From a virus (Duplodnaviria; Heunggongvirae; Uroviricota; Caudoviricetes), in IMG/VR virus record IMGVR_UViG_2740892523_000006: 55,003 bases of DNA, one strand, 5' to 3'. Numbering within the stretch: position 1 is the stretch's first letter; the number at the start of each line of letters is the position of its first letter. Below, piece after piece: positions 17,248 to 42,848 of this stretch. Under the pieces are notes generated by a model, which made no database searches, was not told where the DNA came from, and saw nothing but the letters and a program-made list of their open reading frames with translations. Position numbers and translations under genes: made by a program.

Positions 17248-18750
17248 TCACAAAATGAAACGGATCTGTGCTGCCAGGAAGCGGAACTGGTTAACCAGAT
17301 CCGGCGTGCATAACACGTCAAGACGGTTTCGATCTGACGCATTACGCTCCACAAGCAGATTCTTTTTAAAGGTGTCCAGATTTTCGACCAGCCCGAGTTC
17401 CACCCACTCTTCACCCAGCGAAATTAACTGAAGCTTCATGATCTCCGGCGTCACGATATTCTGACCGGCACGAACGGGCGTCCCGTCATCAGCCAGTTTA
17501 TGGCGCGGAAAACGTTGTGTGATAAAAGTACGCAGGGAATAACGCAGCCAGGAGAGGGTGTAGATGGTTTCCACATCCAGATAGCTGGGATCACTTTCGC
17601 CGTACACGTTCTGGCGATACATGGTCACCTGACGTTCGATCTGAACCACATCACCGGCAGCCACACTGACCGTGGCAATCCCTCCCCACAGCAGACTGTT
17701 ACGCTCTTCACGCGTCAGACGATCGGCCGGAGCCGGGGCCATGCGTGACGGAAGCGCCAGCGTCTGAAGCGGACGCGCAGGATCTGCTCCCAGAGAGGGT
17801 GCACAGGTGGCACAGACCGCCGCTGCCCAGAGGTAATCCGGTTCAGGGGCTTTGGGAATGGATGTGCAGGTCGCCAGAAAATCATTGCGTTTTGCCCCGA
17901 ATGCCTGCACCTCACCAAACGTGCCGGTATGTGCCAGCCACAGCACGCCGTCAGACATTTTGGCCGGTCCCCAGCGTTTCAGAAGCTCATCACTGATGAT
18001 TTTCAGGTTTGCATCATCCTTATAGGGCATGACGACATAGTTGTACTGGCGATCGCCCATACCCGCCACGCTTCGGGTGATATCCGGGTTAGCCGCTTTT
18101 TGTTTCGGATAGGCTATAGCGACCTGTATTCCTTCCGGGGTTGCTTCCCCGTCGTGATAGTTCAGGCGCACATCATGAACGGAGCATTCACCGGTAAAGC
18201 GGGCGGTGATCCCCAGAGACCCTTTCAGACCTGCGCCATTATCACCACTTCCTGCACCAGAGGAGGCCGTGAAGGGCGCGTCAGGATCGGCATTGATCAG
18301 CGCGGCCAGCTCGTCGGTCAGTTCTTTGCCTTTCTTACCTTTTGGTGCCGGGAGTGTATAACGCCGCCCCCCCACGCAGGCATAAACAATCCCGTCACGG
18401 GTGACCGTTCCGGTCAGATTCATGGCCGCAGCCGTTGCCTGTCCGGTGCCGTTCCCCTGAGCAATGGCATACAGTTCAGCATCAGGATTGATGGCGATAA
18501 ATTCCGCCACCATCAGGGCAATCATGGAGCCGCGCCCCCAGAGTTCTGTTGCCTGAGACGCACGGGTGATCCTGACCGGAACATCCAGAACACCGGCACC
18601 GTCCACGGCATTCTCTTTCATTCTCGCCTGACCAAACAGCAGCACACACTGACGCTGTGCCGGAGTGCCGGTGACAGCCATGGAGTTATTAAACTCAACC
18701 TCAATCAGCGGTATACGGCGGTCATTACCGATCCCGTCAAAATTAATCAT
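17248..18750 (-). CDS. Contractile tail sheath protein (Mu L-like)
   Basis: 500 aa, size and position as Mu L. Confidence 0.8.
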   Translation of the reverse strand: MINFDGIGNDRRIPLIEVEFNNSMAVTGTPAQRQCVLLFGQARMKENAVDGAGVLDVPVRITRASQATELWGRGSMIALMVAEFIAINPDAELYAIAQGNGTGQATAAAMNLTGTVTRDGIVYACVGGRRYTLPAPKGKKGKELTDELAALINADPDAPFTASSGAGSGDNGAGLKGSLGITARFTGECSVHDVRLNYHDGEATPEGIQVAIAYPKQKAANPDITRSVAGMGDRQYNYVVMPYKDDANLKIISDELLKRWGPAKMSDGVLWLAHTGTFGEVQAFGAKRNDFLATCTSIPKAPEPDYLWAAAVCATCAPSLGADPARPLQTLALPSRMAPAPADRLTREERNSLLWGGIATVSVAAGDVVQIERQVTMYRQNVYGESDPSYLDVETIYTLSWLRYSLRTFITQRFPRHKLADDGTPVRAGQNIVTPEIMKLQLISLGEEWVELGLVENLDTFKKNLLVERNASDRNRLDVLCTPDLVNQFRFLAAQIRFIL

Positions 18751-18992
18751 TGCGGTTTCTCCTTATCGGATGCCGGTTGGGCGACCGGTTTTTCTGTCGC
18801 AGTCGTTGCATCCGCAGATACAGCCGGAGCCTCTTCAGCGGCTTTTTCAGCCTGAATGACATCGCCGTCATCAAGACGCCGACACCAGAACGGCGTAAAG
18901 GGCTTTTCCTCCCCCTCCTGTGCCAGCGGGCGCATTGTGTCGGGATCACGAATCAGGCGTCCCGGCGCGGGTTTGATAAAGATGGTTTTCAT
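18747..18992 (-). CDS. Hypothetical structural protein (Mu gp38 position)
   Basis: 81 aa; synteny. Confidence 0.45.
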   Translation of the reverse strand: MKTIFIKPAPGRLIRDPDTMRPLAQEGEEKPFTPFWCRRLDDGDVIQAEKAAEEAPAVSADATTATEKPVAQPASDKEKPQ

Positions 18993-19553
18993 TTACAGTT
19001 CCTCCGGCGGTTCGACCGCCGTTGTCGTGTTCCCCGGCAAATCAATATGTGCCTCAAACGGCGGCGTACCGGGCGGCTCCACAAAGGTTTCGTAATGACG
19101 CAGGAAGTCGTCCAGCGAGCTGGTATCGGTCAGCGGTGCGATCATTTCCTCGCAGGAGAAATAAAGCGCATACATCACCGCACCACTGTCCGCCTGGGTT
19201 TCGGTGTAACCGTTGACCGCCTTTTCAAAGTAAAGCGGTGAGGTTTTTTCTGTTCTGAAGCCGTTAAGCACGGCAATCAGCCGGGCCACAATCTGATACA
19301 GTCCGGGACGGCTGGCCTCACGCCCGTTGAGCATGTCGCCGATGACGTAGAACACCCAGTGACTGACCAGGCGACCACGGGTACGGCCTTCACCGGCACC
19401 CAGCCAGGCAACGTAGATCGCCGGGGCGTTAATCAGCATGGTGCGCAGTACGCTGTCGCTCCAGTCGCCGGGATGCGTGTCAACAGACACCAGTTCATTC
19501 CCGAAATACTCACGGATACGGGCGATGTATGCCTGTTCGGTTTCCGTAATCAT
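18993..19553 (-). CDS. Hypothetical virion protein (Mu gp37 position)
   Basis: 186 aa; synteny. Confidence 0.5.
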   Translation of the reverse strand: MITETEQAYIARIREYFGNELVSVDTHPGDWSDSVLRTMLINAPAIYVAWLGAGEGRTRGRLVSHWVFYVIGDMLNGREASRPGLYQIVARLIAVLNGFRTEKTSPLYFEKAVNGYTETQADSGAVMYALYFSCEEMIAPLTDTSSLDDFLRHYETFVEPPGTPPFEAHIDLPGNTTTAVEPPEEL

Positions 19554-19969
19554 ATGAAGCCCTTCTGGTTGCGCCCGAATACCGCTGCATCAGACTGAAC
19601 CTGTGGTAAATCCCCGGATTCAGGGGCCGCACCGTTCGTATCCACACCGACCGGCACATTGCCGTTCATGACATCTTTCAGCCAGGCCAGCGCTTCACGG
19701 TAACGGTCACGCGCCTGATCGGAGGCTCGCTGATCGCACAGGTAATAAAAGGCAATCGCGCAACAGTGCTGAACAAGAACGGCCGGAATAACCTCCAGCG
19801 GCAACGTGTAACGGGCGGACAGATAGCTGTCGATAAGGGCTGACGCATCTGTCAGCGCCCGGTTCAGCTTGCGCGTGTCCGGCTCATCCGAACGGGGCAC
19901 AGCCAGTAACGGCCTGAGCAAATCCTCGCGGTAACGCGCCCGCATATCGGTTTCAGTGGCGTAATTCAT
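19550..19969 (-). CDS. Hypothetical head-tail protein (Mu gp36 position)
   Basis: 139 aa; synteny. Confidence 0.5.
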   Translation of the reverse strand: MNYATETDMRARYREDLLRPLLAVPRSDEPDTRKLNRALTDASALIDSYLSARYTLPLEVIPAVLVQHCCAIAFYYLCDQRASDQARDRYREALAWLKDVMNGNVPVGVDTNGAAPESGDLPQVQSDAAVFGRNQKGFI

Positions 19970-20358
19970 GCACGGGCCTGTTCCGCTTTGTTACCGGTCT
20001 TTTTCCGGGGAGCATCCTGTCCGGCTTCGGCTTCGGCTTCGGCTTCGGCTTCGGCTTCGGCTTCGGCTTCGGCTTCGGCTAAATCTGTACCGGCCACTGC
20101 ATGAACCACACCCGCCACGCTCCCCGCATCATCAGCAGACGTCTGTAGTATTCGCACAGTGAGGCATGGCTCCTCCTCCAGTCGGGCAAGCTGCTCCGGG
20201 GTGACCTCAACCTGCTGACGTCCACGCGTGAACAGGAACCCCGCACGACGAAACGCCGAACGACTGCAACGCACTTCTGCCAGCACCGTGACAGAATTGT
20301 CACCACTGACCTGAAGACCTGAATCATCTGTTGCTGCCACAGTGTGATGTTCATTCAT
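19966..20358 (-). CDS. Hypothetical head protein carrying an (EA)10 repeat (Mu gp35 position)
   Basis: 130 aa; ...TDLAEAEAEAEAEAEAEAEAEAGQD encoded by a perfect hexanucleotide repeat. Confidence 0.5.
   Translation of the reverse strand: MNEHHTVAATDDSGLQVSGDNSVTVLAEVRCSRSAFRRAGFLFTRGRQQVEVTPEQLARLEEEPCLTVRILQTSADDAGSVAGVVHAVAGTDLAEAEAEAEAEAEAEAEAEAGQDAPRKKTGNKAEQARA
20023..20080. repeat. Perfect tandem hexanucleotide repeat (GGCTTC) x ~9.7
   Basis: ggcttc repeated from 20023 to 20080 without interruption. Confidence 0.95.
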
Positions 20359-20401
20359 ATTTGCCCTCCGCAGGGGCCGGGCCGTAAGCCCGGCTCACCG
20401 T

Positions 20402-21349
20402 TTACAGATAATCCGCGACAACCAGCTCCAGCTTGCCCTTCATCTCGTTAGAGACGGTTGCGTTTCCGTCTGCGAACAGTTCACGCTCCAGCAGCTGCAC
20501 CGCCTGTTTTTCCAGCGAGGTGGGGACAACAATATGGGTGGGTTTAATGCCGAGTTTGCGGCCACCGTCAGCGGTAAATTCGCGCATGGCTGACCAGCCG
20601 TGCCACAGTGCATCCAGCGTCAGCGGTGACTGCATCATGTAGGCCATCTGCCAGAAGCCGTAGCCCACATTGCGACGGGCGGATGCACCAAACACAAATT
20701 CGTTATCGGTGAATGCGCGACCTTCATCGACTTTGGTCTGGGCAACCAGTTCAGCCTTACGGCGATCCTGATAAATCAGCGGTTTTACCGCGCGGGAGCA
20801 GTCAAGCAGATACCAGGCCGGACCGCTGTAATCAGCCTGTGCGCCGACAGAGCCGGTTTTTGCCACAAACATATTGCTGACCATCTGCGCATCCCCGGAG
20901 CCATCCACTTTGGGGTAAACCGGATGTTCGGTATCAAAGAAGTTCTGACCGTCATAGCAGGCCGCACTGATCCCGTCACGCAGGGCAGCAAAGACCAGCT
21001 CATCCGGTTGTACCGCCGCAGCGCGCCCCATCTCCTGGAACAACGGGGAATAAATACCGAGGTTGTCGTCTTCGAAGTCATCGCGGCTAATGGCGACAGT
21101 GCCTTCAAAAGTTTTGTTCACGATGGCATAGCCATAGGCTTTCATCTTCTCGATGACGCGGGAGCCGATCCACTCACGGAACTGCGGGAACTGCCCCAGC
21201 CAGCCGTAGGTGTTGGATTTCGATGTGGAGGGCACGGTCATCGCAATTTTTTTATACTGCGACGGGGCCATGGACATCCCGGCCTGAAAATCAGAACGGT
21301 AGCCCGTCATCAGGGCGGTGATCATCGCCGGTGTAATCGGGGTAGGCAT
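20402..21349 (-). CDS. Major head subunit (Mu T-like)
   Basis: 315 aa downstream of protease/scaffold gene; synteny. Confidence 0.7.
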   Translation of the reverse strand: MPTPITPAMITALMTGYRSDFQAGMSMAPSQYKKIAMTVPSTSKSNTYGWLGQFPQFREWIGSRVIEKMKAYGYAIVNKTFEGTVAISRDDFEDDNLGIYSPLFQEMGRAAAVQPDELVFAALRDGISAACYDGQNFFDTEHPVYPKVDGSGDAQMVSNMFVAKTGSVGAQADYSGPAWYLLDCSRAVKPLIYQDRRKAELVAQTKVDEGRAFTDNEFVFGASARRNVGYGFWQMAYMMQSPLTLDALWHGWSAMREFTADGGRKLGIKPTHIVVPTSLEKQAVQLLERELFADGNATVSNEMKGKLELVVADYL

Positions 21350-22473
21350 TATTGCATTTCCTCTTTCATTTTCAGGAACTCGGCTTCGGTTTTACCCAGC
21401 AGTTTGGCGGCCGCGATATCTTCAGCCGACAGCGCAGCGGTGGCAGTCTTTTTATCCGGCACGGTCACGGTGTCGGTCTGAAGAGAGGTCAGGGCCGCAA
21501 CCGGCTGGCGGGCGTCAAGCTGTGCAGAAAGTGCCGCAACGCCAATCTGCCCGCCCAGTTGTTCCAGATAGCCGCGTTCGCTTTTGAAGATGCGCCCTTC
21601 GGATTCAGCCTTGTCCAGCACCTGCTCCAGCGTGGTGCTGCCGTGCTGCGCCGACAGCGCAACGTATTCGGTACGCAGGGCGTTATACGTTTCAACGGGC
21701 ACGTATTTCGTCAGATCAATAATGCCGCCAGCCGGTGTGCCTTTTGCGGTTTCCAGCTCTGCCGACAGACTGGCGACCTGTGTTTTCAGGTTGTCGTGTG
21801 CATCCGCACGGGTTTTGATCCCGGTGAGGGCAGACAGCGCCGCCGTGCCCAGCTCCGGCGTAAATTCGTCACCGTCAGCCACGGTCAGACCGAGCGCCGT
21901 CAGCAACTGGCGTAATTGCTCATTCATGGAGGTATCCTTTAAAGGAGGGTTTAAGGCGTTATAAAGGTCATCCGCCGACAGCGCGGCGACAGGATTCATG
22001 CCGGTCAGACCGGGGTCACCGGTAATAGCCAGCATCCGAAGTTCGACAGGTTCGCCGGTGTTCTCGTCATAGCCAATCACCGGTGAAAACCAGGGGAATT
22101 CGTTATTACGCAGATGTTCAAGGGCCGGAGGGTTCCACTTCGGGCGCACCTCGAAGCCACGCTCTTCACTGAAGCGAAAATTCTCCGGTGAGGCCATCAC
22201 AAAACCGGCAGCCGGTGCCTGATGCCCCTTAATCAGGGTCTGGTGGTTGTAGTCAATTTTCACCGGCTGATTGAGCGCCACAACCCGGGATACCATGCGC
22301 TCAACGGTCGCACGGTTAATCAGCCAGCCCTCGGCCGGTTTTTCCGGGCGACCGTCACGGGCCTTTACCCGACCGGCTGGCATGATCTGACACCAGTCAC
22401 CGTCCCCGTCTGCGGACAGGCTGATGGCATTCAGAATGGCATAAGCAAGTTTGGGCGTGTTTTTCGTCTTCAT
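21349..22473 (-). CDS. Head protease/scaffold protein (Mu I-like)
   Basis: 374 aa; N-terminal part then Ala-rich coiled-coil C-terminus typical of scaffolds; synteny. Confidence 0.65.
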   Translation of the reverse strand: MKTKNTPKLAYAILNAISLSADGDGDWCQIMPAGRVKARDGRPEKPAEGWLINRATVERMVSRVVALNQPVKIDYNHQTLIKGHQAPAAGFVMASPENFRFSEERGFEVRPKWNPPALEHLRNNEFPWFSPVIGYDENTGEPVELRMLAITGDPGLTGMNPVAALSADDLYNALNPPLKDTSMNEQLRQLLTALGLTVADGDEFTPELGTAALSALTGIKTRADAHDNLKTQVASLSAELETAKGTPAGGIIDLTKYVPVETYNALRTEYVALSAQHGSTTLEQVLDKAESEGRIFKSERGYLEQLGGQIGVAALSAQLDARQPVAALTSLQTDTVTVPDKKTATAALSAEDIAAAKLLGKTEAEFLKMKEEMQ

Positions 22474-22649: not shown

Positions 22650-23123
22650 TTAAGGCGTTTCTGTGGCCTTTTTAAAGCGTTTTCTGATTTCGTCCATGAT
22701 CTCCTGCTCTGCCACCTGATCAAAGCCCATATACGGGCGTGCGCCAATGGCCGCCGGTCCCGGTGGCATACCAGGCAGGCCACCCCACTGATGAATGGCC
22801 GCATAAGGCTCATTTGATCCAATCAGCGCCCAGGTATCGCCATAATCCGTGGTCAGGCGTCGGGCCAGATCGCCGTTCAGCGTCAGGATTTTGCCGGGCA
22901 TGTATCCCTTACGGGTACGCCACTTGCGGTAAGGATCTGACCAGTCATGCCAGCGTTCGCCGTCCGGCTCTTTTTCCTGTTCAAACGCCATTTCTGACGA
23001 TGACAGAAGACTCGCCGCCACACTGCGGGCCAGGTCTTTCCCTCCACCCACAAACTGAAGCCGGGCAAAGACCCGCTGGAGACGCGTAACGTCAACAACG
23101 ACAGCGGCATCAATGGATGACAT
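22650..23123 (-). CDS. Virion morphogenesis protein (Mu G-like)
   Basis: 157 aa between F-like and I-like genes. Confidence 0.55.
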   Translation of the reverse strand: MSSIDAAVVVDVTRLQRVFARLQFVGGGKDLARSVAASLLSSSEMAFEQEKEPDGERWHDWSDPYRKWRTRKGYMPGKILTLNGDLARRLTTDYGDTWALIGSNEPYAAIHQWGGLPGMPPGPAAIGARPYMGFDQVAEQEIMDEIRKRFKKATETP

Positions 23124-23244
23124 ATTGCCTCCGCATAAAGGATGAATATAAAATAAACAGGCGGTCAGTGTACGCTTAACTGGTAAAGTCGGTGCCTGCC
23201 TCCGGGTGGATCATGTATGCGGGTTCAACCCCCGCCACTGACCG

Positions 23245-24576
23245 TTAATCAATATCTCCTTCCAGTACCTCAAGCATTCCACCCCGGATATCCGATTTCA
23301 GCTTATCCATATTGATAACCCGGTAAGCATTCACAATCACATCCAGTTTATCCGGCTGACGCTTCAGGCTGTACGGCGCATTAACGGCAATCTGCACACT
23401 GCTATCCTTACTTTCCACGATATACATCAGATTGTTGTGGCGTTTGTCCCACAGCACCGCTTTTGGCTTTGCCAGCATTGCCGGTAATCGACCGAAATCC
23501 TCCGGCGTCAGGGCGATACCGTCATTCTGATGTTTCATGCTGTCCGCATGGAGCACATTTTTACCGCTCATCGCCAGCAGGCGGGCCGGTGGCGTTCCCG
23601 TCCGGCTTTCCACCGCCTGCGCAATGCTTTCGGTCATAAAGCCCAGCGTGCGGATATCGTTACCGCCTCGCCGGGTTTTCATGATGTTTTTTGCCCAGAT
23701 GCGGAACGCCAGCTGCCGCTCCGGGCTGTTGTTCATCTCCTGCACTACCATTTCCCGCAGCGCCGGGCTTTTCACCTCGATCAGTTTACGGATCAACGCC
23801 TGGTCTGTGCCGAACGCCGCCGAGCCGGGGTTATATGACCAGCCCACATCCGGTGTCATGGTTCTGGTGCCATCTGAATATGTGGTCACCGGCATTTCTC
23901 TGACTTCTCCGGTCTGCTTATCCACGCCAGCCTCAACATTGCGGGTGGAGAGATGATCCTGACCGGATGAAACAGACAGCCCCATCGCATCCAGACGGGC
24001 CTGAGACAATGGCCGGACACGGCAGCGACAGTTCCAGCCATTGGGCGGGTAGTGTGTATTCCAGAACGGATCGTCATAGCGGAATACCAGCCCGTTAAGG
24101 GCGGAATGTGCCGGGCGGGTGCGGCTGTCCATCACCGCCACATACTGCCAGAACGGATGCGTGTCCGTGTTGTTCATCATCTGCGTGTAACGCCCGGCAT
24201 TGTAAGCCACACGGGTGTTCACGTTGTAAATCAGCGCCAGACGGCGGGGACTGCCCAGCTGCACTTCTTCCGCGTTACCGGCACTGTCCACCACAATCTG
24301 TTTTCCCCACCATCCCAGCTTTTGCAGGCGGGGTGTCAGCGTGCGAATAAATGCTTTCTGTGAAATCCCCTCATCAACAGCACGCTGCACTTCCGCCTGT
24401 AGTGTGGTCAGTACGTCCAGGCGTGCCACTTTTGCCGCCGTGAATGAACGGGCATGAACATCCGCGTCTGTTTCGAACCAGTTCCAGCTGATATGCGCCC
24501 CTTTGGCGCGGAAGTATGCCACCGCCTCTTTTGAGGCAAGTGTGGCGGCATAACCTAAATCAATCCCTTGTGCCAT
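23245..24576 (-). CDS. Minor head protein (Mu F/gp30-like)
   Basis: 443 aa directly after portal; synteny. Confidence 0.65.
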   Translation of the reverse strand: MAQGIDLGYAATLASKEAVAYFRAKGAHISWNWFETDADVHARSFTAAKVARLDVLTTLQAEVQRAVDEGISQKAFIRTLTPRLQKLGWWGKQIVVDSAGNAEEVQLGSPRRLALIYNVNTRVAYNAGRYTQMMNNTDTHPFWQYVAVMDSRTRPAHSALNGLVFRYDDPFWNTHYPPNGWNCRCRVRPLSQARLDAMGLSVSSGQDHLSTRNVEAGVDKQTGEVREMPVTTYSDGTRTMTPDVGWSYNPGSAAFGTDQALIRKLIEVKSPALREMVVQEMNNSPERQLAFRIWAKNIMKTRRGGNDIRTLGFMTESIAQAVESRTGTPPARLLAMSGKNVLHADSMKHQNDGIALTPEDFGRLPAMLAKPKAVLWDKRHNNLMYIVESKDSSVQIAVNAPYSLKRQPDKLDVIVNAYRVINMDKLKSDIRGGMLEVLEGDID

Positions 24577-41093: not shown

Positions 41094-42848
41094 CCTGGTT
41101 ACATGATGTCGTGCTGCTTCCGTTTCATTCATCCGGTTCAGTGCAGCATTTTCAGCATTACGGCGTTTCTGTTGCTCCTGATAATTCCGCTCTGCCTGCT
41201 CTTTTGCATCCTGCAAATCCTTCTGGCGTTTTTTCTCCTGAAGATCGTTAAGACGCTGCTGATCGTATTCAACCTGAGAAGATGATGCCGTCCAGGGGAG
41301 TCTTTTCGCCCGCGACACTTTCTCCTGTAAAGCGGCAATCTGTTCATCCAGCGAGTCTTCACGACCAATATTCATGGCCGCATCCCAGAAACGACTCCAC
41401 AAATCAGACAGATACTTCAGCGTACTGCCAAGCGCATTGAGGTTATTATCAATATCCGCAGTACGCCGACCGGTTTCCTCTGCCAGTGCAGACATGGCTA
41501 TCCGTGCAGCATCACTGGACCGCCCCTGCTCCCCAAGGACGCGTATCTGCTCAAGCTGAGTGGCAGTAAGAAAATGCAGCTCATTGTCCAGAGCCTTCGC
41601 GGCATTTACAGGATCATCCTTCAGCCGCTTAAACTGATTTATGGTATCGCTGACCGACTGGCCAACCGATCGCTCCATCTGTGCGGCAGCTCTCGCCACC
41701 ATACCGATATCGTTTCCACGAAATGCACCACTCCCCACCACCTGAGCCAGCGCACCGGCTGCAGCATGTTGCGTGATACCATTCCCGGAAATAGCACGAC
41801 TGAGCGTCCACAGCTGCCCGGCAGTGACTCCGGCATAATGCCCCGTCAGCGACAGCTGGCGGTTAAATTCTTCCCCCTCCTTCTGACCGTCATACCAGGC
41901 TTTACCCAGACCATAGACAGCCGCGGCAATACCGCCAATAACCGCTCCTGGCATCATGCCTTTCGGTGACATCAGTGTGTCTATCCACCCGGCACGGTTA
42001 GCCAGCGTTATTCCGGATCCCCTCAGCGCACCTAAATTGCCGCGGGCCAGTTCACCTATCAGAACGCCTATCTCCTGACGGGCTGCTGCACTTTTCAGAC
42101 CCAGCGAATGCGTGGCTTTTCCTGCCTGCTCCATTTTGCGGATATACACTTCTGCAGCACTGCTTACCCCCAGCTGGGCAGCCTTAGCACGAAGCAACTC
42201 AGAAGAAGAAAGATTCTGGCGGGTTGCCTGCTCTTTAAGCTGACGGATAAACGCCACTTTCTGTCGGGTAGCCTCTTCCTCAGCCTGTGTAAGAACACGG
42301 GTTTTCGCCGTAACCTCAGAAATCAGCGCCAGATAATCCTGCTGACCAATCCCGCCACTGTTTCTGGCCTGTCGGATCTGTTGCTGAATACGCTGTAATT
42401 CCTGCAGCCCCGCACCGGCCTGTTTCACACTGTCAATCTGACGATAAAACGCAGCAGCCGCTTTATCCTGAGCCTCCGCCAGAGCCATGGCCTGCGCCTG
42501 TTCCTCGCGCATTTTCTGGCTCAGTGCCTCCATACGCTGGCGGGTTTGCTCCACCTCGCGGGCCATGCGTTCATGAGCCTGTGCGCTCTTCTCCACCGTC
42601 TGCGCATGGACGGATGCGGCTGTTGCAGCCGAAGAAGCCGCCTGCATTGTCTGCCGGGCGGCCTGAGTCTGACGCTCCATAAAACGCTGCATACGGGCAG
42701 AAGACCGTTCTGCATCGCTGGCTGCACCATTCAGAAGGTTTTTGATACGGGGAATTTCATTTTTAAACTCTGCCGCATCAATCCCCAAATCAATGACCAG
42801 GTTGGCTATCTGGTCCATAACGCACACCTCCGGAAATACCTTCCCCAA
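41091..42848 (-). pseudogene. H: Lambdoid tape measure protein H, N-terminal fragment, truncated at Mu-like insertion
   Basis: 585 aa; N-terminus MDQIANLVIDLGIDAAEFK resembles recalled lambda gpH start; stop codon TGA 41091-41093 coincides with first bases of Mu-like end. Confidence 0.75.

Follow-up and report, generated by a model that had tools for sequence, protein, structure and literature searches.

Contingency loci built on tetranucleotide repeats in Haemophilus and Neisseria genes have a repeat unit that is not a multiple of 3, which lets them turn genes on or off. Outbreak typing of EHEC in Japan relies on 17-18 loci, EHC-5 among them, in an MLVA scheme for EHEC O157/O26/O111 that reportedly goes back to Izumiya et al. 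in 2010 (Microbiol Immunol 54:569). EHC-5 is absent in most O157 isolates and highly variable where it is present (Hirai 2023, PMC10062581). In the portion of the S2 Table of that study considered here, EHC-5 is non-zero in 38/142 O157 isolates, with alleles 2-14 obtained by fragment-length MLVA with capillary electrophoresis, and isolates CEC18128 and CEC18136, identical at the other 16 loci, carry EHC-5 alleles of 5 and 9, respectively (PMC10062581). EHC-5 is treated there as an anonymous marker; that it lies in a gp35/HI1506 gene, and in the part encoding a disordered tail, is not stated in that paper (PMC10062581).

The protein family to which the locus belongs is that of phage Mu gp35 and the FluMu protein HI1506. 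We take HI1506 (PDB 2OUT) to consist of two domains joined by a flexible linker. Mu gene 35 has no letter name, and we know of no conditional-lethal mutants that defined it; the missing letter name is weakly consistent with an accessory role. Mu gp35 is listed as 'probably structural', yet it is not resolved in the 3.3-3.8 Å whole-virion maps; in the Mu virion structure the portal gp29, adaptor gp36, and terminator gp37 were built, and the Mu capsid contains no cement or decoration proteins (PMC11915804). Since Mu gp35 is unresolved in the maps and the capsid lacks cement proteins (PMC11915804), we dropped as unsupported the idea that the gp35-like protein studied here decorates the capsid. 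The SuMu virion proteome paper makes no mention of a gp35 homologue, and a full-text literature search for HI1506 returned no match. The Sf14 protein named 'gp35' was rejected as a homologue; it is an unrelated connector protein.

Here we analyzed a stretch of 55,003 nucleotides of Caudoviricetes DNA (IMG/VR record IMGVR_UViG_2740892523_000006), referred to here as the window, that contains a perfect hexanucleotide repeat within a gp35-like gene. Like the contingency loci, the array is a perfect short coding repeat of the kind subject to slipped-strand mispairing, with rates of change far above that of point mutation. Unlike the on/off loci, its 6-nt unit alters protein length only, and switching is impossible. 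Judged by its unit size, the array reads as a length polymorphism and not as a phase-variation switch. We consider it highly likely that the array, which is EHC-5, is a hypermutable in-frame microsatellite in the disordered C-terminal tail of a gp35/HI1506 protein and that it varies by near-neutral slippage.

The hexanucleotide array and its identity with EHC-5

We found that Tandem Repeats Finder, applied to the 55 kb window, reports an array at positions 20022-20080 with a period of 6, 9.8 copies, 100% matches, no indels, and a score of 118. Elsewhere in the window the program returned only matches of approximately 2 copies with scores of 31-44, which makes this array the strongest by far, and the chance expectation of a perfect 59-nt periodic run in 55 kb is essentially zero. 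Read directly, the sequence has GGCTTC nine times in full at 20023-20076 and then GGCT. The array is therefore a perfect VNTR that reads GGCTTC on the plus strand and GAAGCC, encoding Glu-Ala, on the coding (minus) strand. Codons 94-112 of the enclosing gene translate to A(EA)9, that is, 9 Glu and 10 Ala. The initial annotation of this DNA had described a perfect GGCTTC repeat of about ten units encoding an (EA)10 tract. The perfect repeat, at the same position, and the EA tract are borne out by both Tandem Repeats Finder and the direct reading, while the count was half a unit too high. The annotation also placed the array inside the open reading frame at 19966-20358, which the list of open reading frames supports as the correct enclosing frame (minus strand, 130 aa).

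Two candidate features of the array itself were set aside. As DNA the array folds weakly (-3.7 and -4.7 kcal/mol), and hairpin-driven slippage was dropped since a special structure is neither needed nor indicated. We dismissed a 64-aa open reading frame on the plus strand (19968-20162), whose translation would contain (LR)n, because it is antisense to a conserved, Pfam-supported gene and is a product of the repeat itself.

We found that the array is the published MLVA locus EHC-5 of EHEC and was thus already known. This identity is based on the EHC-5 primer pair as given in Hirai 2023 (PMC10062581, S5 Table). The Reverse primer, CCGCTTTGTTACCGGTCTTTTTC, matches the plus strand at 19983-20005 with 0 mismatches (0/100 shuffles matched), and the Forward primer, ATACTACAGACGTCTGCTGATGA, matches the minus strand at 20129-20151, also with 0 mismatches. 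The two primers are convergent, bracket 20022-20080, and give an in-silico amplicon of 169 bp (19983-20151). None of the remaining primers of the MLVA scheme matched the window. When in-silico PCR was extended to the window and 11 relatives (12 loci), amplicon length was 115 + 6n, ranging from 133 to 205 bp for n = 3-15. EHC-5 and the array in the window are the same DNA, with no difference at the DNA level. What tied the array to EHC-5 was the pattern of alleles reported in Hirai 2023, together with the primers tabulated there (PMC10062581); a full-text literature search for the repeat unit sequence in the context of O157 MLVA returned no match.

The gp35-like gene and its predicted protein

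Our data indicate that the gene at 19966-20358 (minus strand) is the homologue of Mu gp35 and FluMu HI1506 in a Mu-like prophage of the Sp18 type from Shiga-toxin E. coli. Its 130-aa product matches the Pfam family FluMu_N (PF17891) over residues 36-72 with 35.2 bits against a cut-off of 25.8, and it falls within phrog_3622 (E 7.7e-81), a family annotated as unknown function. The sole solved relative is PDB 2OUT (phmmer E 1.6e-4), which is HI1506 and bears the title 'Mu-like prophage FluMu protein gp35'. By tblastn, the gene matches Mu gene 35, which occupies the syntenic position. Gene 35 is labelled 'head-to-tail connector complex protein' in the curated Mu record, and RefSeq names the E. 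coli orthologues 'HI1506-related protein'.

The neighbors of the gene all lie on the minus strand and form the late head, neck, and tail block of a Mu-like phage. The major head subunit gpT (20402-21349; Pfam PF10124, E 6.6e-119) is directly upstream, preceded by protease I (21349-22473). Directly downstream is the Mu Gp36 head-tail adaptor (19550-19969; Pfam PF07030, E 3.5e-35; phrog_195, head-tail adaptor), and beyond it lie Gp37 (18993-19553), a DUF2635 gene (18747-18992), and the tail sheath gene (17248-18750); these three and protease I were assigned from the open reading frame list, Pfam, and phrog. The order gpT, gp35-like, gp36 is common to the window and phage Mu, and the earlier description of a head-region gene fits a gene of the head/neck module that has gpT on one side and gp36 on the other. 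An ATGA at 19966-19969 (minus strand) combines the stop codon of the gp35-like gene with the start codon of gp36. This arrangement is typical of translational coupling, and the two genes may be coupled in this way.

The intergenic region between gpT and the gp35-like gene contains possible expression signals on the minus strand. RNA folding revealed a GC-rich hairpin of 8 bp at 20376-20394, just past the gpT stop codon, and a strong Shine-Dalgarno sequence, GGAGGG (20364-20369), lies 5 nt upstream of the gp35-like ATG. A simple terminator scan of the window did not flag this hairpin because it has no T-run. Phage Mu has a predicted terminator and a ribosome-binding site at the equivalent place, between T and gene 35. 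The hairpin and GGAGGG may set the ratio of capsid protein to the products of the downstream genes.

We next considered how the protein is built. Given an alignment of 16 sequences, AlphaFold2 predicted a folded N-terminal domain at residues 23-73 (20140-20292, minus strand; pLDDT 83-91) made up of a beta-hairpin, a helix, and a strand, and assigned a pLDDT below 50 to residues 77-130, including the EA tract. Compared with the PDB by Foldseek, the model matches 2OUT best (probability 1.00, E 3.1e-3, identity 31%); over the whole chain the TM-score is low, 0.36, because of the disordered tail. The N-terminal domain carries the RRAG motif of the family, in which R38, A39, and G40 are invariant or nearly so (alignments A1/A2). 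By PF17891, phmmer, Foldseek, and the RRAG motif, the N-terminal domain is homologous to that of Mu gp35 and HI1506.

The C-terminal half of the protein differs from that of most family members. Distant homologues were recovered by an exhaustive profile search, and nine of them were aligned (alignment A1). Seven of these nine, and Mu gp35 as well, share the RRAG N-terminal domain, a variable linker, and a conserved C-terminal domain of approximately 50 aa, recognizable by the block ...F T..G.P.V.AV...LG......AAL. In this alignment the window protein lacks the second, C-terminal helical domain of the two-domain HI1506 architecture and has (EA)9 and 18 residues instead. These 18 residues, GQDAPRKKTGNKAEQARA (19969-20022, minus strand), form a basic end with a net charge of +3 and a pLDDT below 50. 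We found two alleles of this end: ...NKAEQARA in the window and, in relatives, ...NKAKQAKKARA, which is longer by 9 nt and has 5 more net positive charges. In the nearest two-domain relatives, from Edwardsiella, similarity to the Sp18-type proteins stops at '...GVAGVVH...D(L/M)', after which the latter continue with (EA)n and GQDAPRKKTGNKAEQARA. Thus, from the same junction, Mu gp35 has its conserved C-terminal domain whereas the Sp18-type proteins have (EA)n and a short basic end. Mu gene 35 has no evident tandem DNA repeat. In two further family members, low-complexity tails rich in Ala, Lys, and Glu take the position of the C-terminal domain.

Based on these alignments, the window protein appears to be a gp35/HI1506 member by its N-terminal domain only and a variant of truncated architecture. 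Since the tract region has a pLDDT below 50, and since the C-terminal domain is replaced in Sp18-type proteins and in two other members, we regard this region as predicted to be disordered and as apparently changeable in the evolution of the family. The initial annotation had called the tract a linker. This is loosely right in that the tract lies between the folded N-terminal domain and the 18-residue basic end, but nothing folded lies downstream of it, and predicted disordered tail is the more fitting term. The annotation also spoke of a virion protein, an assignment that is putative for the gp35-like product. Elsewhere in the family, two distant homologues (P0092 and P0096) have two tandem RRAG N-terminal domains, one of them with a long Ala-rich N-terminal extension. 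Such tandem copies suggest that the N-terminal domain might be an independent binding module.

Copy-number variation and its origin

The initial annotation had proposed that copy number could vary and that a hexamer unit would keep the reading frame. We found that both hold among related prophages. Direct counts in 34 related loci range from 1 to 17 units in whole 6-nt steps, and all of these alleles (34/34) are in frame. The 16 fetched E. coli and Stx-phage loci have 3, 4, 7, 7, 8, 9, 10, 10, 11, 12, 12, 13, 13, 14, 15, and 17 units of pure GGCTTC with identical junctions, while the 18 IMG/VR viral contigs have 1-16 units. A second, diverged flank lineage is present among the IMG/VR contigs, with 1, 4, 9, 14, and 16 units. 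In 57 complete E. coli genomes, an evenly spaced sample of the full-length matches with counts derived from match length, the lengths imply 1-17 units with no dominant allele; those lengths that are offset from the window by 3 modulo 6 are explained by the C-terminal allele that is longer by 9 nt. The n = 1 allele is frequent (9/57 sampled genomes), with protein clusters of 150 member sequences. Across the 16 fetched loci and the IMG/VR contigs, each pure unit uses the identical two codons, which indicates expansion at the DNA level and not convergence at the protein level.

Some database entries are irregular at the tract. In one E. coli protein of 119 aa (P0073), a shift of frame turns the tract in part into (KP)n (...TKPKPKPDEG...) before the normal C-terminal end; it is either a rare double-frameshift allele or a sequencing error. 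Many database copies of the protein (P0055, P0062, P0063, P0069, P0076, and P0078) are 'partial' and end inside the EA tract or start just past it, and one IMG/VR contig (L138) terminates within the repeat. We infer that short-read assemblies break at long alleles. Because long alleles would exceed the assembler k-mer, they would be under-represented in draft genomes and protein databases. A scan of genome contigs with a 19-nt pattern gave at least 120 matches, 0 of which had the right-hand flank; we rejected these as chance matches in GC-rich genomes, the pattern being too short.

We asked whether the differences in copy number might be an artefact of sequencing or assembly. The many database proteins that are partial at the tract, and the contig that ends in the repeat, are what such an artefact would produce. 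On the other hand, the differences are all exact multiples of 6 nt and in frame, and independently assembled cattle isolates agree with each other (113 with 139, 132, and 135; 131 with 120). Fragment-length MLVA by capillary electrophoresis independently gives a range of alleles, 2-14 in the published entries considered here (PMC10062581). An artefact thus appears extremely improbable.

The closest relatives of the window are the most informative. Among eight copies, made up of the window plus seven relatives, any two are separated by 0-6 substitutions in 6.4 kb of flanking DNA, and the arrays contain 8, 9, 11, 12, 13, 14, or 15 units. Cattle strain 113 has 14 units while strains 131 and 120 have 13, with 0 flank differences, one shared chromosomal site, and identical accessions for the neighboring proteins; in strains 139, 132, and 135 the match length is 551 nt, identical to that of strain 113. 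The array is thus far from invariant, since otherwise identical prophage copies differ in length. Given 8-15 units among copies with 0-6 flank substitutions, point substitution is far slower than change in the array, which proceeds by whole in-frame units.

These comparisons also bear on whether recombination or gene conversion between co-resident Mu-like copies, or re-infection, is the main source of alleles. Genomes contain up to 4 copies of the region, and Mu-like phages transpose to new sites, other prophages included, so that opportunities for exchange exist. Multi-step differences between otherwise identical MLVA types, such as 5 versus 9 in the published entries considered here (PMC10062581), could reflect recombination or prophage re-acquisition instead of slippage. 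However, strain 113 differs from strains 131 and 120 by exactly one unit at one site with 0 flank differences, and the consecutive ladder of alleles 8-15 in near-identical haplotypes is the signature of stepwise slippage. Unequal exchange within the array would, moreover, give the same products anyway. We consider it quite unlikely that recombination or re-infection is the main source; slippage explains the ladder of single-unit steps among identical haplotypes better than recombination does, and recombination may contribute.

We propose that replication slippage on the perfect (GAAGCC)n array would add or remove whole Glu-Ala units. Because the unit is 6 nt, every change would keep the reading frame and, with it, the ATGA overlap with gp36, which survives in-frame changes of the repeat only. 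Changes of 2 to 34 residues in length, and shifts of approximately 16 units in net charge, would be tolerated in the tail because the segment is predicted to be unstructured and stands in for the C-terminal domain of most family members. The net charge of the protein runs from about -3 to -19 over the observed alleles and from +2 to -14 for the allele with the long tail, and tolerance of this charge swing argues for weak constraint. The array would then undergo roughly neutral drift that outpaces point substitution by far. We conclude that the drift is probably near-neutral.

The same features might be read as a contingency locus, in which slippage is exploited to tune the acidic spacer of a head/neck assembly protein and selection maintains a pure, mutable array. 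The array is pure in 34/34 directly counted loci, up to 17 units, expansions have occurred in two diverged allele lineages, and net charge moves by approximately 16 units across alleles. The tract also has a basic folded domain on one side and a basic tail on the other, so that its acidic length could matter electrostatically, and positive patches suggestive of nucleic-acid binding have reportedly been seen by NMR on both domains of HI1506. Against this, the 6-nt unit is incapable of on/off switching, and purity is equally expected from rapid neutral slippage. Among the 57 genomes, the frequencies of alleles 1-17 form a flat spectrum in which no length is favored, and n = 1 is frequent. The tracts of database cluster representatives are shorter and often impure, with EV, ES, GA, KA, and ET among the dipeptides, so that short, impure alleles are common in databases. 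We therefore regard selection for a mutable array as unlikely, and it is equally unlikely that its tuning would alter DNA or connector binding or allow escape from a host defence sensor.

A related possibility is that (EA)n is an electrostatic 'rheostat' in which 1-17 acidic dipeptides are interposed between the basic RRAG domain and the basic end. We consider this very improbable. If it were true, there would be a standing pool of gp35-like variants differing in their engagement of DNA or of the portal-adaptor complex, or in recognition by a host anti-phage sensor, and a gene for phage morphogenesis would contain a contingency locus that stays in frame. Near-neutral slippage in a disordered tail remains our preferred explanation.

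The host prophage and EHC-5 as a typing marker

Of 5426 complete E. coli genomes, 228 contain the region, as do two Stx-phage records with an 'inserted Mu-like phage' (LC727895 and LC727881). Sp18 is an apparently intact Mu-like prophage (PMC2669165; PMC7430833). The right prophage junction in the window lies at approximately 41104-42300: the Mu-like prophage ends at approximately 41104, and the DNA beyond it belongs to a lambdoid gene for a 'phage tail tape measure protein' and matches many O157 genomes at 100% identity. The junction at approximately 41104 is spanned by 0/5426 complete E. coli genomes. Since tape-measure DNA adjoins the prophage end at a junction seen in 0/5426 genomes, the window copy appears to be inserted in the tape-measure gene of another prophage, similar to LC727895 and LC727881.

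Other features of the prophage were noted alongside. STEC799 and PA20 have a tail sheath gene whose annotation marks it as frameshifted (L008:350-1851 and L009:350-1851, orthologues of 17248-18750), and because of this some copies of this Sp18-type prophage are probably defective despite an intact EHC-5 array. A tRNA-like element is present on the plus strand at 23160-23244, with an acceptor-like stem (GGTCAGTG...CACTGACC) and a T-arm-like segment (GCGGGTTCAACCCCCGC). It is antisense to the late genes and lies between a G-like gene (22650-23123, minus strand) and an F-like gene (23245-24576, minus strand). Neither ARAGORN nor Rfam at the gathering threshold made a call for 23160-23244; RefSeq (PGAP) annotates 'tRNA-OTHER' at this site in five related loci (L007, L011, L013, L014, and L016), and the window differs from L007 by one T-loop base (GTTCAA versus GTTCGA).

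Our data provide context for a known marker rather than a discovery. Comparison of the copy number of this array across prophages has in effect been routine surveillance since the 2010 scheme. Other loci of the scheme, including O157-3, O157-9, O157-17, and O157-25, are likewise fast-evolving length markers, situated elsewhere in the genome or on pO157. EHC-5, unlike these, is carried by a transposable Mu-like prophage and for this reason varies in presence and absence as well as in length; its published behavior, mostly absent and with alleles 2-14 where present, fits a locus on a mobile prophage. The placement of EHC-5 on a Mu-like prophage means that a '0' allele corresponds to absence of the prophage, and a strain that has more than one copy of the prophage could yield a mixture of EHC-5 alleles. 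Near-neutral drift that is faster than point substitution would account for the use of the array as an epidemiological marker.
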